This document shows positions 1 to 38,890 of a DNA stretch of 38,890 nucleotides, piece after piece. The notes under the pieces are model-generated. The model ran no database searches, was not told the origin of the DNA, and saw nothing but the letters and a program-made list of their open reading frames with translations. The translations under genes were made by a program, and so were the position numbers. Positions within the stretch are counted from its first letter, which is position 1; every line of letters begins with the position of its first letter. This DNA is from Escherichia phage ECA2: sequence record NC_047766.1. One strand, written 5' to 3'.

Positions 1-81
1 ATCGCTAAATATGCGATGGGTCACGGCGGTCTGCGTCCAGAAGCTGCTGGCGCTATCGTTCTCCCAAAGGTGTCGGAGTAA
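1..81 (+). CDS. 10A: Major capsid protein 10A, 3' end (continues from 37928..38890 across the window junction)
   Basis: Frame 1 reads [26 protein letters not shown]-stop and joins in frame to ...RRANYQADQI at the window end; matches recalled T7 gp10A C-terminus. Confidence 0.9.
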   Translation: MAKYAMGHGGLRPEAAGAIVLPKVSE

Positions 82-353
82 TTCCCGACCCCACTGGAGT
101 TACTCTTAGTCAGAAGACTATGAGCTTAGACGTTGGGGCTTCTAAAGCCCTGACTTCTACGGTAACTCCTGCTGATGCAGTACAGACAGTGACCTTTACG
201 TCTTCCAATGCGAAGATTGCCACGGTCGATGCCTCTGGTACTGTAACTGCTGTGGGCGCTGGCTCCGCTGACATCACTGCGACTACTGTGAACGGCCTGA
301 CGGCTGTCTGCAAGGTCACTGTGAAAGCAGTAGAGCCTCCCGTAGAAGGCTAA
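63..353 (+). CDS. 10B: Putative capsid 10B extension reached by -1 frameshift; carries a Big_2 Ig-like domain
   Basis: Slippery heptamer C_CCA_AAG at 63-69 in the 10A frame; the -1 frame is open from 9 to 353; ORF 120..353 translates to a Big_2-like sequence ([43 protein letters not shown]). Confidence 0.5.
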
Positions 354-392
354 GGTCTTTACCGGGGATTTACTTTCCTTCATTACTTTATG

Positions 393-436
393 AACCCCTT
401 GGGTGCCCTCTGAGGGTATCTGAGGGGTTTTTTTGC
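393..436 (+). terminator. Tphi-like phage RNAP terminator after gene 10
   Basis: GC-rich hairpin CCCCTTGGGTGCCCTCTGAGGGTATCTGAGGGG followed by T7; same position and similar sequence as T7 Tphi. Confidence 0.8.
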
Positions 437-437
437 T

Positions 438-460
438 TTAAACCCTCACTAACAGGAGGT
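438..460 (+). promoter_or_regulatory. Phage RNAP promoter-like variant upstream of gene 11
   Basis: TTAAACCCTCACTAACAGGAGG; differs from the consensus by one extra A and AACAGGAG at the start site. Confidence 0.5.
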
Positions 461-466
461 AACATC

Positions 467-1057
467 ATGCGCTCTTATGAGATGAACATTGAGACCGCAG
501 AAGAGCTATCAGCCGTCAACGACATTCTGGCTTCCATCGGTGAGCCACCAGTATCAACCCTTGAGGGTGATGCGAATGCTGACGTTGCGAATGCTCGACG
601 CGTACTCAATAAGATTAACCGACAGATTCAATCACGAGGATGGACATTCAATATTGAGGAAGGTGTGACTCTTCTACCGGATGCGTTCTCTGGTATGATT
701 CCATTTAGCTCTGACTATCTGTCCGTAATGGCAACCAGCGGTCAGACCCAATATATCAACCGTGGTGGCTATCTCTATGACCGCTCTGCGAAGACTGACC
801 GATTTACTTCTGGTGTTCAGGTCAACCTGATTCGTCTGAGAGAGTTCGATGAGATGCCTGAGTGCTTCCGAAACTATATCGTTACCAAGGCTTCCCGCCA
901 GTTTAACAACCGCTTCTTCGGTGCGCCGGAGGTAGACGGAGTGTTGCAGGAAGAAGAACAGGAAGCGTGGCGTGCGTGCTTCGAGTACGAACTGGACTAC
1001 GGCAACTACAACATGCTGGACGGTGACGCATTCACCTCTGGTCTACTTAACCGCTAA
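467..1057 (+). CDS. 11: Tail tubular protein A (gp11)
   Basis: 196 aa; N-terminus [28 protein letters not shown] matches recalled T7 gp11; RBS AGGAGG upstream. Confidence 0.95.
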
Positions 1058-6803: not shown

Positions 6804-6821
6804 CAGTGATAAGGAGGCTCC

Positions 6822-9800
6822 ATGAGCTACGATAAGAACAAACCTAGCGAGTTCGATGGGTTATTTCAAAAAGCGGCAGACAAACATGGGGTCTCCTATG
6901 ACCTGCTTCGTAAATTGGCATTCAACGAATCCAGCTTCAATCCAAAGGCCAAATCTCCAACTGGCCCGAAGGGTCTCATGCAGTTCACCAAGGGTACAGC
7001 CACTGCGCTGGGACTCAAGGTCACTGATGCAGACGATGATGACCGTTACAACCCGGAGTTGGCTGTGGATGCAGCCGCTCGTCACCTGAGTGACCTCATT
7101 CGTAAATACGATGGGGATGAGCTTAAGGCAGCCCTAGCGTACAACCAAGGCGAGGGCAGAAATGGTGCCCCTCAGATGCAGGCCTACGACAAAGGTGATT
7201 GGGCCTCAATCTCTGAGGAAGGTCGTAACTATATGCGCAACCTGATGGACGTAGCTAACAGTCCTCGCAAGGGGGACTTGGAGGCGTTCGGCGGTATCAC
7301 CCCAAAGGCTAAGGGCATTCCATCTGGGGATGCATTTGCTGGAATCGGGAAGAAGCAGACGGTAGGTACTGACCTGCCGGAGTCAACTGGATTCAAAGTG
7401 GAGGGTACGGAGCAGAAAGCACCTAACGTGCCTTATGCTAAGGACTTTTGGGAAAAGACTGGAACAACGCTGGACGAGTTTAACGCACGTTCGACCTTCT
7501 TCGGAATTGGTGATGCAATAAGTGCGGAGCTTCACAACTCTGTACTTGGAGTTGCTTTCCGTGCAGCCCGTAGCGACGATGGTTTTGATTTGTTCAAGGA
7601 CACCATCACGCCTACACGTTGGAATAGTCACACTTGGACGCCAGAAGAGCTAGAGCGAATCCGTAAGGAAGTGAAGAACCCAGCGTATATCAACGTAGTC
7701 ACTGGAGGCTCTCCTGAAAATCTGGACGCCCTCATTAAGATGGCGAATGACAACTATGAGATGGATGCGCGGTCTGCCGATGCTGGTGTTGGGGCCAAAC
7801 TTACTGCTGGTATCGTCGGCGCTGGTGTAGACCCGCTGAGTTACGTTCCGCTAGTGGGCGTAGCCGGGAAGGGTCTCAAGGTGGTTAACAAGGCGTTCGT
7901 CGTTGGTACTCAAAGCGCTGGATTAGCGATTGCATCTGAGGGTATCCGTACATCAATAGCTGGTGGTGAAGCACACTACGCTGATGCTGCTTTAGGTGGT
8001 CTCATGTTCGGTGCTGGTATGAGTGCAATCAGTGACGCCATCGCTGCTGGTATTCGCCGTTCCCGTGGGACTGAGGTTGTTAATGACTTCGCTCCTATGG
8101 CACACCGCTTGGAAGCCCGTGAGACCGCTCTGAACTCTGGTGGGGAAGACCTGACCCGTATGCCTAGCGAGAACCGTGTGTTCGACCGTGAGCACGCTGG
8201 CGTTGAGTATTCACCTCTAGAGACCGAGCCGGGTGCCGTTGTGTTGCCTCAAGGTCAAATCCTGAGCGACACCAACCCACTGAACCCTCAGACTCTTAGC
8301 GAGTTCGAGGCGGTCAACCCTGAGCGTGCCGCTAGTGGTATCTCTTTGGGTGGTTTCACTGAGATTGGCTTGAAGACTCTCCGCTCTGAGAACCCGACTG
8401 TTCGCTCCATTGCGAGTGACCTTGTGCGTTCTCCAACAGGGATGGAATCAGGCTCTAATGGTAAGTTCGGTGCGACTGCTTCTGACATTAAGGAGCGGCT
8501 CCACGCGAACAATCAGCGCACCTACAATCAGCTTTATGATGCTGTGCGTACTGCAATGAAAGACCCTGAGTTCTCCACAGGTGGGGCCACAATGAGCCGT
8601 AAGGAAATCCGACAGGAAATCTACAAGCGTGCAGCCTTGGCGATTGAGCGCCCTGAGCTTCAAGCAAACCTGACAAAGGGTGAGCGGAACGTGATGAACA
8701 TCCTCAAGCAGCACTTTGACCTCAAACGTGAAATCATGGAGAACCCGTCAATCTTCGGCAACACCAAGGCGGTCAGTATCTTCCCCGGCTCACGCCACAA
8801 GGGAACCTACGTGCCAAACGTGTACGACCGCGCTATCAAGATTGAGATGGTTAAACGCTACGGTAATGATGGCTTGCAGCGAGCAATCGCGGAGTCATGG
8901 TTGACGTCTTATCGTGCTCGTCCAGAAGTCAAGGCGAGGGTCGATGAGTACCTGATGGAACTTAACGGTCTCAAATCCGTGCAGGAAGTTACGCCTGAGA
9001 TGGTGCAGAAGCACGCGATGGATAAGGCGTATGGTATTTCACACACCGACCAGTTCTCTGCCTCCTCTGTCATTGAGGATAACATTGAGGGTCTGGTGGG
9101 TATCGAGAACAACAACTTCTTGGAAGCCCGTAACATGTTCGACAGTGACATGGCGGTGACTCTCCCTGATGGTAACACGTTCTCTGTGAATGACCTGCGT
9201 ACCTATGACATGGCTGAAATTCTGCCTGCATACGACCGACGAGTAGATGGTGATGTTGCAATCATGGGTGGTTCCGGTAAGACTACCAAAGACCTGAAAG
9301 ATGAAATCATGGCGCTGGATAAGCAGTCAGAGGGCAACGGCACATTGAAAGGTGAAGTGGAAGCCCTCAAGGACACCGTGAAGATTCTAACTGGTCGTGC
9401 TCGTAGGAACCCGGAAGGCGCTTGGGGTACAGCCCTGCGCTCCGTCAATGACCTCACGTTCTTTGCTAAGAACGCCTATATGGGCGCACAGAACGTTACT
9501 GAAATCGCTGGTATGCTGGCGAAAGGTAACGTCTCTGCGATAACTCATGGCATCCCTATGATTAACGATTGGGTCAACCGTGGTAAACCGCTTCGTGCCT
9601 CTGAGATTAAGGAGATACACGGGATGGTGTTCGGTAAGGAACTAGACCAACTAATCCGTCCGGGACGTGAAGACCACGTGCGCCGACTTAGGGAGTCTAC
9701 GGACACCAGCGCTGCGGTTGCCAATGTGGTCGGTACGATTCGTTTCGGTACTCAAGAGTTGGCTGCACGCTCTCCTTGGACAATGCTCCTAAACGGAACA

Positions 9801-10784
9801 TCAAACTACATTCTTGATGCTGCCCGTCAGGGTGTGCTTGGGGATGTGGCTGGAGCGGCCCTTGCTGGGAAAGCCTCTAAGTTCGGTAAGGCAAACTACC
9901 TTAAGTCTGCCTCTATCAGCCCTGAGCAGTGGAATGGAATCAAGCAGTTGTTCAGAGACTATGCGACTCGTGGAGAAGACGGTAAGTTCACCATTCGTGA
10001 CAAACAGGCTTTCGCTAACGACCCACGTTCAATGGACTTGTGGAGACTGGCCGACAAGGTGGCGGATGAGACTATACTGCGCCCTCACAAGGTTTCCTCA
10101 CAGGACTCCAAAGCGTTCGGTGCAGGGGTGAAGATGGTGATGCAGTTTAAGAACTTCGTCATCAAGTCCCTTAACTCCCGGTTCGTCCGTAGCTTCTATG
10201 AGGCAACGAAGAACAACCGTGCGTTAGACCAAGCGTTGACTCATATCATCTCCTTGGGTCTAGCTGGTGGTTACTACGTTGCGCAGGCACACCTTAAGGC
10301 CGCAAGCCTACAGGAGCACAAACGTAAGGAGTACCTCAAGAACGCCCTTGACCCTAAGATGATTGCTCATGCATCAATCTCCCGTAGTTCACACTTAGGC
10401 TCACCATTGAGTATCTACGACATGTTCGCTGGGATGGTTGGTAGCGATACCTATAAGTACACCCGCTCTACTGTACTCCCTAAAGAGTCCGAGAAGCGTG
10501 ACCCTACCAAGGCAGTGACAGGTAGACAGGTGGCTTCAACTATCGCAGGTGCAGTTGGTGAGCAGGTTCCGGGTTTAGGTTTTGTGGGTTCTGTGGGCGC
10601 AACAGCCATTAACGCCGCTTCCCTGCTGTCTTCTCCAAACAAGGCTACCGCTCTGGAGTTCCGTACAGGACTCTTCAACACCTCTCGTGAGTTGATTCCT
10701 AATGACCCGCTATCGCAGCAACTCATTATGAAAATCTACGAGGCCAACGGTATCCGCATAAAGGAGACGCCGAAGAAACAATAA
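6822..10784 (+). CDS. 16: Internal virion protein D (gp16) with N-terminal lytic transglycosylase domain
   Basis: 1320 aa; N-terminal SLT-like motif (AFNESSFNP...GPKGLMQFTKGTA); synteny. Confidence 0.93.
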   Translation: MSYDKNKPSEFDGLFQKAADKHGVSYDLLRKLAFNESSFNPKAKSPTGPKGLMQFTKGTATALGLKVTDADDDDRYNPELAVDAAARHLSDLIRKYDGDELKAALAYNQGEGRNGAPQMQAYDKGDWASISEEGRNYMRNLMDVANSPRKGDLEAFGGITPKAKGIPSGDAFAGIGKKQTVGTDLPESTGFKVEGTEQKAPNVPYAKDFWEKTGTTLDEFNARSTFFGIGDAISAELHNSVLGVAFRAARSDDGFDLFKDTITPTRWNSHTWTPEELERIRKEVKNPAYINVVTGGSPENLDALIKMANDNYEMDARSADAGVGAKLTAGIVGAGVDPLSYVPLVGVAGKGLKVVNKAFVVGTQSAGLAIASEGIRTSIAGGEAHYADAALGGLMFGAGMSAISDAIAAGIRRSRGTEVVNDFAPMAHRLEARETALNSGGEDLTRMPSENRVFDREHAGVEYSPLETEPGAVVLPQGQILSDTNPLNPQTLSEFEAVNPERAASGISLGGFTEIGLKTLRSENPTVRSIASDLVRSPTGMESGSNGKFGATASDIKERLHANNQRTYNQLYDAVRTAMKDPEFSTGGATMSRKEIRQEIYKRAALAIERPELQANLTKGERNVMNILKQHFDLKREIMENPSIFGNTKAVSIFPGSRHKGTYVPNVYDRAIKIEMVKRYGNDGLQRAIAESWLTSYRARPEVKARVDEYLMELNGLKSVQEVTPEMVQKHAMDKAYGISHTDQFSASSVIEDNIEGLVGIENNNFLEARNMFDSDMAVTLPDGNTFSVNDLRTYDMAEILPAYDRRVDGDVAIMGGSGKTTKDLKDEIMALDKQSEGNGTLKGEVEALKDTVKILTGRARRNPEGAWGTALRSVNDLTFFAKNAYMGAQNVTEIAGMLAKGNVSAITHGIPMINDWVNRGKPLRASEIKEIHGMVFGKELDQLIRPGREDHVRRLRESTDTSAAVANVVGTIRFGTQELAARSPWTMLLNGTSNYILDAARQGVLGDVAGAALAGKASKFGKANYLKSASISPEQWNGIKQLFRDYATRGEDGKFTIRDKQAFANDPRSMDLWRLADKVADETILRPHKVSSQDSKAFGAGVKMVMQFKNFVIKSLNSRFVRSFYEATKNNRALDQALTHIISLGLAGGYYVAQAHLKAASLQEHKRKEYLKNALDPKMIAHASISRSSHLGSPLSIYDMFAGMVGSDTYKYTRSTVLPKESEKRDPTKAVTGRQVASTIAGAVGEQVPGLGFVGSVGATAINAASLLSSPNKATALEFRTGLFNTSRELIPNDPLSQQLIMKIYEANGIRIKETPKKQ

Positions 10785-18711: not shown

Positions 18712-19821
18712 ATGACTTTCACCGAAGCACAAGCAGCACTCGAAGCTATCCGCAACCTACCGATTGAGCGCCTGAACGAACGCCAGACTACGCTGGTGAC
18801 TCTTGCGGCTGCTATCGTGAACGCTGAGACTCAAGACGGCGAACTGACGCAGGCAGCAGGAAACACGTCGCTAGAAGATATGGACTACTGGCAGACACTG
18901 GCGGAGCGCATGAGGGATGTTGGTTTCATCAAGCTAGGAAATGGTCACTTTAGCGCAGCGTATGAGCACGCATTGTTGCCGGGCAAGGTTATCAAGGTAG
19001 GCTTTAAGAAAGAGGACTCAGGCGCAGCCTATGCAGCCTTCTGCCGCATGAACCAAGGCCGGGAAGGTATCCCTACGGTGTACGACATTCAGCGTCATGC
19101 TGGTTGTTACACGGTGGTTCTTGATTATCTGAATCCGCTTAACTACTGGTGCGATGGTGAGAGTGACAAGGTTCGTCACCACGTCAAGGCCGCACGGGAA
19201 ATCATTGAGGAGGATTGCTTTGATGCTGCCGAAGAGTACCCGATAAGCGAGGGCTTTATTGAGACCTGCAAGGACATTCGCAAGTTCTTCTTAGGCATCG
19301 CATCGTTCGAGTGTCACAGCGGGAACATGATGAAAGACCAGATGGGACGCCTGATTATCACAGACCCGGTATCATTCAGCGCAGACGACAAGTTAAAGCC
19401 GGGTGAGTTCCACTGCGACCCTGATGAACTCATCGCTGAGATTGAGGCGCTGAGAGCGCAGGAAGCGATTGACCGCTGTAAGGCACGTAAGGCACGCCGT
19501 GACCCTAAAGGAGACTTTCAAGTAGCGCGTAAAGCACGCATCAAGTGGCGCAGAAAGGCCTCTAAGCGTGCGAAGCGCAACGCTAAGTTACTCGCTAGGA
19601 TGCGCATGGACGACAATCAGAATCGCAGGGATGAGCATAGGGCGCGTATGGTGTTGGGCGATAAGCACTGGCGCAACGCTTGGATGCACCACAATAACCT
19701 AAACTTTGCAGAACTGGAGCGCCGCGCTGCTGCGGCAATGATGATGCACGACGAGGTGCGCATTCAGTGGGGCAAACCGTTACACATAGACGCATACCTT
19801 GACAAGCGTCTACAAGGCTGA
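18712..19821 (+). CDS. 0.7: Protein kinase / host shutoff protein (gp0.7)
   Basis: 369 aa; motifs GNGHFSAAYEH, VIKVGFKKEDSGAAYAAFCRM, RHAGCYTVVLD, basic C-terminal half; matches recalled T7 gp0.7. Confidence 0.93.
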   Translation: MTFTEAQAALEAIRNLPIERLNERQTTLVTLAAAIVNAETQDGELTQAAGNTSLEDMDYWQTLAERMRDVGFIKLGNGHFSAAYEHALLPGKVIKVGFKKEDSGAAYAAFCRMNQGREGIPTVYDIQRHAGCYTVVLDYLNPLNYWCDGESDKVRHHVKAAREIIEEDCFDAAEEYPISEGFIETCKDIRKFFLGIASFECHSGNMMKDQMGRLIITDPVSFSADDKLKPGEFHCDPDELIAEIEALRAQEAIDRCKARKARRDPKGDFQVARKARIKWRRKASKRAKRNAKLLARMRMDDNQNRRDEHRARMVLGDKHWRNAWMHHNNLNFAELERRAAAAMMMHDEVRIQWGKPLHIDAYLDKRLQG

Positions 19822-22632: not shown

Positions 22633-22905
22633 ATGATTAACATTAAGACTTTCTTTAAGAGCATCTTTAAGTTAAACCGCTTGACTTCCGTTAAGTTCTA
22701 CGCTTGGATGCCCGGTAGTGATGACCTCCGCAAGACTGAATTTAAGCTAGGCTTAGGGCCATGTGGTAAGGTGGTCACGAAGTTGGAATGTTACTCAACG
22801 TCCTCCGGGATGGTCATCTTCCAGACCACTGAGGACAACGAAATGAAATCCTTCTACTACCCGAAAGGTTCAACGTGTGGTCGTATCGAACGGACATACA
22901 GTTAA
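22633..22905 (+). CDS. Hypothetical protein (90 aa) in the gene 1 / 1.1 intergenic (origin) region
   Basis: ORF downstream of a phage promoter; AT-rich 5' end; no recognisable motif; weak RBS. Confidence 0.45.
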   Translation: MINIKTFFKSIFKLNRLTSVKFYAWMPGSDDLRKTEFKLGLGPCGKVVTKLECYSTSSGMVIFQTTEDNEMKSFYYPKGSTCGRIERTYS

Positions 22906-37771: not shown

Positions 37772-37796
37772 TTAACCCTCACTAAAGGGAGAGACC
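37769..37796 (+). promoter_or_regulatory. Phage RNAP promoter phi10 (late, consensus)
   Basis: TAATTAACCCTCACTAAAGGGAGAGACC. Confidence 0.92.
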
Positions 37797-37927: not shown

Positions 37928-38890
37928 ATGGCTAACATTCAAGGCGGACAGCAAATTGGTACTAATCAGGGTAAGGGTCAGTCCGCAGCGGACAAATTGG
38001 CGCTGTTCCTGAAAGTGTTCGGCGGTGAAGTCCTGACGGCTTTCGCTCGCACCTCCGTGACCATGCCTCGTCACATGCTGCGCTCTATTGCTTCTGGTAA
38101 GTCCGCACAGTTCCCTGTGATTGGTCGCACCAAAGCTGCTTACCTGAAACCGGGTGAGAACCTCGATGACAAACGTAAGGATATCAAACACACCGAGAAG
38201 GTAATCCACATTGATGGCCTACTTACTGCGGACGTTCTGATTTACGACATTGAGGACGCGATGAACCACTACGACGTTCGCGCCGAGTACACCGCACAGT
38301 TGGGTGAATCTCTGGCGATGGCGGCTGACGGTGCTGTACTGGCTGAACTGGCTGGTCTGGTTAACCTGCCGGACGCCTCCAATGAGAACATCGAGGGTCT
38401 CGGTAAGCCTACCGTACTGACTCTGGTTAAGCCGACCACTGGCGACCTGACTGACCCGGTTGAGCTGGGTAAAGCGATTATCGCTCAGTTGACCGTTGCT
38501 CGTGCTGCTTTGACCAAGAACTACGTTCCGGCTGCTGACCGTACTTTCTACACCACTCCTGATAACTACTCCGCGATTCTGGCTGCTCTGATGCCGAACG
38601 CTGCAAACTATCAGGCACTGATTGACCCTGAGCGCGGTACTATCCGTAACGTGATGGGCTTCGAAGTGGTTGAGGTTCCGCACCTGACTGCTGGTGGTGC
38701 TGGTGATGACCGTGAGGACACTCCGGCTGGCCAGAAGCACGCTTTCCCGGCGACTTCCAGCACTACCGTTAAGGTTGCTCTGGATAACGTTGTTGGCCTG
38801 TTCCAGCACCGCTCTGCGGTTGGTACGGTCAAGCTGAAAGACTTGGCTCTGGAGCGCGCTCGTCGTGCGAACTATCAGGCTGACCAGATT
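37928..38890 (+). CDS. 10A: Major capsid protein 10A, 5' part (runs off the window end; continues at 1..81)
   Basis: ATG 37928 with RBS TAAGGAG; MANIQGGQQIGTNQGKG...FLKVFGGEVLTAFARTSV matches recalled T7 gp10A. Confidence 0.97.
   Translation, partial: MANIQGGQQIGTNQGKGQSAADKLALFLKVFGGEVLTAFARTSVTMPRHMLRSIASGKSAQFPVIGRTKAAYLKPGENLDDKRKDIKHTEKVIHIDGLLTADVLIYDIEDAMNHYDVRAEYTAQLGESLAMAADGAVLAELAGLVNLPDASNENIEGLGKPTVLTLVKPTTGDLTDPVELGKAIIAQLTVARAALTKNYVPAADRTFYTTPDNYSAILAALMPNAANYQALIDPERGTIRNVMGFEVVEVPHLTAGGAGDDREDTPAGQKHAFPATSSTTVKVALDNVVGLFQHRSAVGTVKLKDLALERARRANYQADQI

Follow-up and report, generated by a model that had tools for sequence, protein, structure and literature searches.

A T3-type programmed -1 ribosomal frameshift that very likely adds an Ig-like extension to the capsid protein of Escherichia phage ECA2

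The capsid gene of Escherichia phage ECA2 very likely ends in a programmed -1 ribosomal frameshift of the type known from gene 10 of phage T3, in which one gene gives both the capsid protein 10A and a longer product, 10B, that carries an Ig-like extension. This interpretation was reached for the whole stretch of 38,890 nucleotides in sequence record NC_047766.1, which we refer to as the window, and it is supported by comparison with the corresponding regions of related phages. The biology itself is already known, as the T3 gene 10 frameshift and its Ig-like extension are described in the literature and the fusion has been annotated in the near-identical Klebsiella phage Patroon. From T3, T7 and the literature we infer the slippage in ECA2, its efficiency, the incorporation of the product into the virion and any adhesive role of the added domain; 10B is expected to be expressed in ECA2 because of the homology to T3.

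The window is a complete T3-like (Teetrevirus) genome in circularly permuted form, and its clade mates, at 95-98% identity, are the Enterobacter phages E-2, E-3 and E-4, Citrobacter phage SH2, Yersinia phage phiYe-F10 and many Klebsiella phages. The first base of the record falls inside gene 10, and the genomes of this phage group are linear with terminal repeats. Because of the circular permutation gene 10 is split between the two ends of the window, and the transcription unit to which it belongs has the following parts:

37774..37791, + strand: T3-type RNA polymerase promoter (phi10 equivalent) upstream of gene 10, an exact match to AACCCTCACTAAAGGGAG
37928..38890, + strand: capsid gene 10 (10A), first 321 codons, with the remainder at 1..81; the join translates to 347 aa
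1..81, + strand: 3' end of 10A in the zero frame, with its stop at 79-81 and a C-terminal peptide identical in T3 and phiYeO3-12
392..437, + strand: intrinsic terminator (Tphi equivalent), an 18-bp stem at 392-430 with 8 GC pairs, followed by a T run at 431-437
441..458, + strand: T3-type promoter for gene 11 (phi11 equivalent), an exact match to AACCCTCACTAACAGGAG and the downstream limit of the gene 10 unit

The two ends of the window can be joined with confidence, as all 60 of the 60 bases compared across the join are identical to T3 in a continuous alignment, and the 10A nucleotides as a whole, join included, have 93-100% identity to T3 gene 10A. The 10A product was assigned to PHROG 267, "major head protein" (E 4e-109), and the start of its gene is preceded by a strong Shine-Dalgarno sequence (-9.3 kcal/mol). 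A search with the pattern AACCCTCACTAA[A/C][A/G]GGAG, allowing up to two mismatches, identified 15 T3-type promoters in the window (seven of which are at 441, 3503, 10784, 15887, 22562, 36739 and 37774), all of them on the + strand, compared to 0.01 expected by chance. The records of T3 and phiYeO3-12 have a promoter annotated at the same place as the 37774 site, and they also have a stem-loop or Tphi at the position that matches 392..437. The terminator, which has a folding z-score of -3.3, ends the gene 10 transcript and is followed, after the phi11 equivalent, by gene 11 (467..1057) with its own strong Shine-Dalgarno sequence. The order of phage promoter, gene 10, Tphi, promoter and gene 11 is therefore the same in the window, T3 and phiYeO3-12. 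The original prediction had placed a terminator immediately after position 353; a strong terminator is indeed present, but it begins 38 nt past the 10B stop codon, compared to a gap of ~160 nt in T3.

The elements from which 10B would be made overlap the last codons of 10A and continue into the region between that gene and the terminator:

63..69, + strand: slippery heptamer C_CCA_AAG at Pro343-Lys344 of 10A, the proposed site of the -1 shift
69..353, + strand: 10B-specific extension in the -1 frame, 94 codons and a stop at 351-353, ending in VEPPVEG
93..314, + strand: Big_2 (bacterial Ig-like group 2) domain, extension residues 9-82

In the phase of 10A the sequence around the site reads CTC CCA AAG GTG TCG GAG TAA, with the stop four codons past AAG, so that both the phase and the coordinates claimed for the heptamer in the original prediction were verified. 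The same was true of the claim that the -1 frame is open from position 9 to 353: the last upstream stop in this frame is at 6-8, and the frame then runs for 115 codons until TAA at 351-353. An identical heptamer occupies the homologous position in T3, phiYeO3-12, SH2, Patroon, phiYe-F10 and IMG/VR contigs. C_CCA_AAG has been described as highly shift-prone in E. coli (PMC5009743), frameshifting in T3 and phiYeO3-12 takes place at lysyl codons (PMC2579914), and the coat protein of T3 gives two capsid products, the longer of which has an Ig-like extension that results from -1 frameshifting (PMC5009743).

The bare heptamer has no statistical weight, because CCCAAAG occurs seven times in the window compared to 4.7 copies expected by chance. 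What gives it significance is where it lies and in which phase, together with the Pfam-positive -1 frame that overlaps it and, most of all, the fact that relatives conserve it. A second in-phase C_CCA_AAG is situated at 7301-7307, within the 1324-codon ORF 6813..10784, which, judged by its size and position, probably encodes a gene 16-type internal virion protein. No -1 ORF lies behind the heptamer at 7301-7307 and we found no hint of a function for it; a slip there would merely truncate the protein, because the -1 frame closes within a few codons.

The expected course of events at the 63-69 site is as follows. Ribosomes translating 10A would arrive at C_CCA_AAG and, in a minority of passes, the tRNA-Pro in the P site and the tRNA-Lys in the A site would re-pair one base back, from CCA AAG to CCC AAA, after which decoding would resume in the -1 frame at GGT (69-71). 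The last three residues of 10A, VSE, would then be replaced by 94 residues that consist of a short linker and one Big_2 Ig-like domain. The predicted outcome is a minor capsid protein 10B of 438 aa and 45.6 kDa beside the 10A protein of 347 aa and 36.9 kDa, and co-assembly of the two would leave a fraction of the capsid subunits showing an Ig-like domain on the exterior of the head. An extension of about 95 residues had been forecast, which is near the exact number. The proposal that these products could be recognized in mass spectra by a peptide spanning the junction did not hold for tryptic digests, however: trypsin cuts at the junction lysine, and the diagnostic tryptic peptide therefore does not span it.

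Sequences that might stimulate such a slip were sought around the site, and one candidate was identified:

75..106, + strand: candidate stimulatory hairpin, 75-85 paired with 96-106 (11 bp, 10-nt loop), starting 5 nt past the heptamer

The hairpin has a stability of -13.4 kcal/mol and could be a stimulator of slippage. Across 11 distinct relatives 86% of its pair cells are kept, compared to 31-47% with slid partners, and one of its pairs varies between A-U, G-U and C-G among the sequences. The RNAalifold consensus of the hairpin was weak (-1.9 kcal/mol), with a single pair having changes on both sides. Synonymous recodings of the same peptide folded as stably in 34% of cases for the window and in 85% for T3, and the codons for the G-V…V-T residues of the hairpin peptide are intrinsically self-complementary. 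As the hairpin is no more stable than synonymous recodings, we do not claim it as a selected stimulator. A Shine-Dalgarno-like stimulator of the dnaX type is absent upstream of the heptamer (-1.5 kcal/mol), and an Rfam scan of positions 1-600 of the window gave no match at E ≤ 1.

The identification of the extension as a Big_2 domain, suggested earlier together with an HMM search as the means to check it, was borne out when that search was run. The extension matches Pfam Big_2 (PF02368) with 58.2 bits and an E-value of 7.8e-16, compared to the curated gathering threshold of 22.8 bits, and nearly the whole profile is covered (positions 3-78 of 79). In the PHROG collection the extension was assigned to PHROG 215, "structural protein with Ig domain" (E 1e-26), and its sequence relatives with solved structures are the Ig-like modules of phage tail fibers, surface proteins and intimin. 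A single-sequence AlphaFold2 model of the extension is all-beta, with a mean pLDDT of 51, which is low confidence. When the fused 438-aa protein was compared to the PHROG profile for "major head protein," the alignment ran unbroken through the junction to residue 408. Two minus-strand ORFs also lie over the Ig region, 110..319 (69 aa) and 126..383 (85 aa); these were dismissed since all 15 promoters and the long ORFs examined are on the + strand and the Pfam domain is in a + strand frame.

Residues of the -1 frame might instead be translated from a start codon of their own. ORF 120..353 could be a separate gene that encodes a free Ig-like protein of 77 aa, with ribosomes either starting afresh at its ATG or re-initiating there after terminating on 10A 38 nt upstream. 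An ATG does exist at 120, the ORF was found by a mechanical call, re-initiation without a Shine-Dalgarno sequence is possible on sequence grounds, and the records of SH2, UNO-SLW1 and phiYe-F10 annotate an independent CDS; however, the small-ORF entries in GenBank are automatic calls and not evidence. The first nucleotide of the Big_2 match is 93, which puts it 27 nt ahead of this first ATG, and the ORF from 120 enters the profile only at position 13. A free protein from ATG 120 would therefore lose profile positions 3-12, the first strand of the domain, and no ATG, GTG or TTG occurs in the -1 frame between position 9 and the ATG at 120. No Shine-Dalgarno sequence precedes ATG 120, either: its anti-Shine-Dalgarno duplex has an energy of +0.2 kcal/mol, compared to -9.3, -11.6, and -11.4 kcal/mol for genes 10, 11, and 12, and 83% of the ATG triplets in the window have stronger pairing.

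The stretch between the slip site and ATG 120 has the character of a coding sequence. It is 17 codons long, 16 of them comparable with Pseudomonas phage UNO-SLW1 of Pifdecavirus, and 10 of the 11 base differences from that phage fall on third positions of -1 frame codons, with 9 synonymous and only 1 non-synonymous codon change, along with one in-frame codon indel. On this comparison, the third-position pattern is the signature of translated sequence. For the extension as a whole, dN/dS relative to both close and distant relatives is 0.1-0.28, and the portion of the -1 frame lacking a start codon is, as judged from these substitutions, under purifying selection. The more distant PD1 and L069 lineages do not share the methionine of ATG 120. 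Seen as an independent small structural gene, then, ORF 120..353 has neither its own ribosome binding site nor a domain contained within its limits; it is not evident how a free Ig domain would become attached to the virion, and T3 is known to produce the fusion and to build it into its virions (PMC5009743). Independent expression of this ORF, which had been named as one outcome that would count against a frameshift, is thus disfavored by the missing Shine-Dalgarno sequence, by a domain and coding conservation that begin upstream of the ATG, and by an ATG that is not conserved, and we consider it improbable.

The frameshift, by contrast, has direct counterparts in annotated genomes. The T3 record (X17255) has 10B annotated as "frameshift at 19084" and that of phiYeO3-12 (AJ251805) as "ribosome slippage at 22682-22687; -1 frameshift," the latter positions being exactly bases of the heptamer. 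Both phages are, like ECA2, members of Teetrevirus, with the same heptamer at homologous Pro-Lys codons, the same 10A C-terminus and an extension whose first 18 residues are identical to those in ECA2, and a tblastn search with the ECA2 extension gave matches in T3 and phiYeO3-12 that are within their annotated 10B. A single Big_2 domain is present in all three phages, although the extension is 94 residues long in the window and 89 in T3 and phiYeO3-12, and their amino acid identity is 64-67%. By BLASTP the T3 extension is 64% identical to that of the window over 87 residues (E 3e-34), and it has its own match to Big_2 (E 4e-10). The annotation of these two phages, the same heptamer and the homologous Big_2 extension support the earlier claim that a -1 frameshift would give a 10B-like minor capsid protein.

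Within the clade of ECA2 the region is almost invariant. SH2, phiYe-F10, E-3, KNP3, GlastosBack and Patroon have 97-98% nucleotide identity to the window here and 97-100% identity in the extension; all 94 residues are matched in Klebsiella phage GlastosBack, and about 33 records reach an identity of 95% or more, out of roughly 95 GenBank records with a match at ≥60%. Klebsiella phage Patroon (MK608335), which is ~98% identical to the window in this region, has a two-piece CDS named "major capsid protein, Frame shift product," and among the annotations examined it is the only record in the clade that joins the extension to 10A. Elsewhere the stand-alone ORF has been given the names "major tail protein," "hypothetical protein," "cell adhesion domain-containing protein," "structural protein with Ig domain" and "minor capsid protein." Our results are of value for annotation in this respect, as most GenBank records of the clade call a separate ORF where the extension should be part of a joined 10B CDS.

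Compared to T3 and phiYeO3-12, the region has a sharp mosaic boundary. The nucleotides of 10A, slip site and linker match those of T3 at 93-100% as far as about nt 117, the match falls to only ~50% in the Ig body and 3' UTR, and it returns at Tphi and phi11; relative to T3 and phiYeO3-12 together, the Ig body is ~50-55% identical. The breakpoint is at about nt 105-120, and dS in the extension relative to T3 is saturated (1.56). Because the body has diverged to this extent while 10A is 93-100% identical, the Ig domain of ECA2 appears to be a different allele or module from that of T3, and the difference looks like a module exchange behind a conserved junction, a swap of cargo by recombination, rather than fast drift.

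This exchange also bears on the possibility that the -1 extension is an unexpressed relic, with an incidental slip site and an Ig-like sequence that has no present function. The heptamer by itself is not rarer than chance, and the copy at 7301 illustrates that it can occur in phase with no -1 ORF behind it. A relic would not be expected, however, to have a dN/dS as low as that of the extension, a frame that is intact in all the relatives examined or a Pfam score far over the threshold, nor to have had its Ig body exchanged between lineages yet kept in frame behind the same junction. We regard this explanation as very improbable.

The -1 arrangement of capsid and Ig frames can be followed beyond Teetrevirus. 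The Pseudomonas putida phages UNO-SLW1, Haage and Vasula (Pifdecavirus) have a homologous Big_2 domain, with 52-64% identity to that of the window; it is encoded in the -1 frame and follows a capsid C-terminus that is likewise homologous. These phages share with the window both the linker peptide and an A_AAG_G junction. Their P-site codon differs, being GAA, GCA or ACA, so that the X_XXY_YYZ pattern of a canonical heptamer is not kept, and a frameshift is annotated in none of them. Two scans of IMG/VR gave mostly Big_2 domains of unrelated tail proteins, with the capsid junction present in about 25 loci, many of which are duplicates. In all of the capsid-linked homologs found, the Ig frame is -1 to the capsid frame and A_AAG_G is kept, with a P-site codon of CCA in Teetrevirus and of GAA, GCA or ACA in the Pseudomonas phages and IMG/VR contigs. 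The junctions outside Teetrevirus (L018-L021, L029, L030 and L069) read AGAAAAG, CGAAAAG, CGCAAAG, CACAAAG and TACAAAG. Since A_AAG_G is invariant while the P-site codon varies, the common denominator would be slippage of tRNA-Lys on A_AAG; outside Teetrevirus the sequences point to single tRNA-Lys slippage, and by the same alignments the full tandem heptamer is present in the T3 clade.

These junctions are also relevant to the possibility that the phage RNA polymerase slips during transcription and the frame is changed in the mRNA rather than by the ribosome, which would give the same protein. The homopolymer runs at the site are only CCC and AAA, and productive transcriptional slippage requires much longer runs of A or T. 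The conservation in relatives of A_AAG_G beside variable P-site codons fits slippage of tRNA-Lys, and T3 has been treated as a case of ribosomal frameshifting in review (PMC5009743). We consider a transcriptional origin of the frame change to be scarcely credible and retain ribosomal frameshifting as the best explanation.

Several of the more distant homologs carry longer extensions, which are annotated in GenBank as separate ORFs. In Pseudomonas phage vB_PpuP-Haage (L019:1492-2910) the Big_2 domain is followed by a GDSL-like lipase/acylhydrolase domain (PF13472, E 2e-9) and ~200 additional aa, and the Ig domain with GDSL-like esterase cargo in Pifdecavirus amounts to about 470 residues. In Vasula (L020:1501-2151) the Big_2 domain is followed by 140 aa with no Pfam hit, and one IMG/VR contig (L009:1492-2025) has two Big_2 domains behind the same junction. 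If the long Pifdecavirus extensions are indeed frameshifted, some T7-like phages would display an enzyme, an esterase, on their capsids at low copy number.

Because the Ig body of ECA2 has been swapped relative to that of T3, and because the junction in Pifdecavirus precedes longer cargo, we tentatively raise the idea that the junction might be a conserved and portable "display cassette" across Studiervirinae, with its cargo exchanged by recombination. The parts of such a cassette, which we propose with equal reserve, would be the 10A C-terminus, A_AAG_G and a linker beginning GV(G/S)V(I). In T7-like phages the 10B position is the natural site for low-copy display, and as such it is relevant to phage engineering and therapy. 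A weak adhesive role has reportedly been proposed for Ig-like domains by Fraser et al. in 2006 and Barr et al. in 2013, and by analogy the capsid Ig domain of these Klebsiella, Enterobacter and Citrobacter phages could affect adherence to mucus or surfaces.

T7 has a homologous capsid gene and, like the window, a -1 shift a few codons before the 10A stop that gives a minor product, 10B; distal 3' sequences have been reported to stimulate the T7 shift. The T7 site differs, however, as it is GGTTTTCAAAG (GGTTTTC…) in NC_001604 and involves Phe codons (PMC2579914), and the T7 extension is not Ig-like (PMC5009743). Consistent with this, the 53-residue T7 extension gave no Pfam hit and had no similarity to the extension of the window (E 0.53), and the window has neither the Phe-codon slip nor the T7-like non-Ig extension of a T7-type (Teseptimavirus) 10B. 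Ig-like domains are also added by frameshifting in Lactobacillus phage A2 and the Listeria phages A118, A500 and PSA, although their carrier proteins and slip sites are unrelated to those of the window, while in T4 the Ig-like decoration protein Hoc is a separate protein and not a frameshift product. The principle these systems share is the display of a C-terminal Ig-like domain on a fraction of the structural subunits (PMC5009743).
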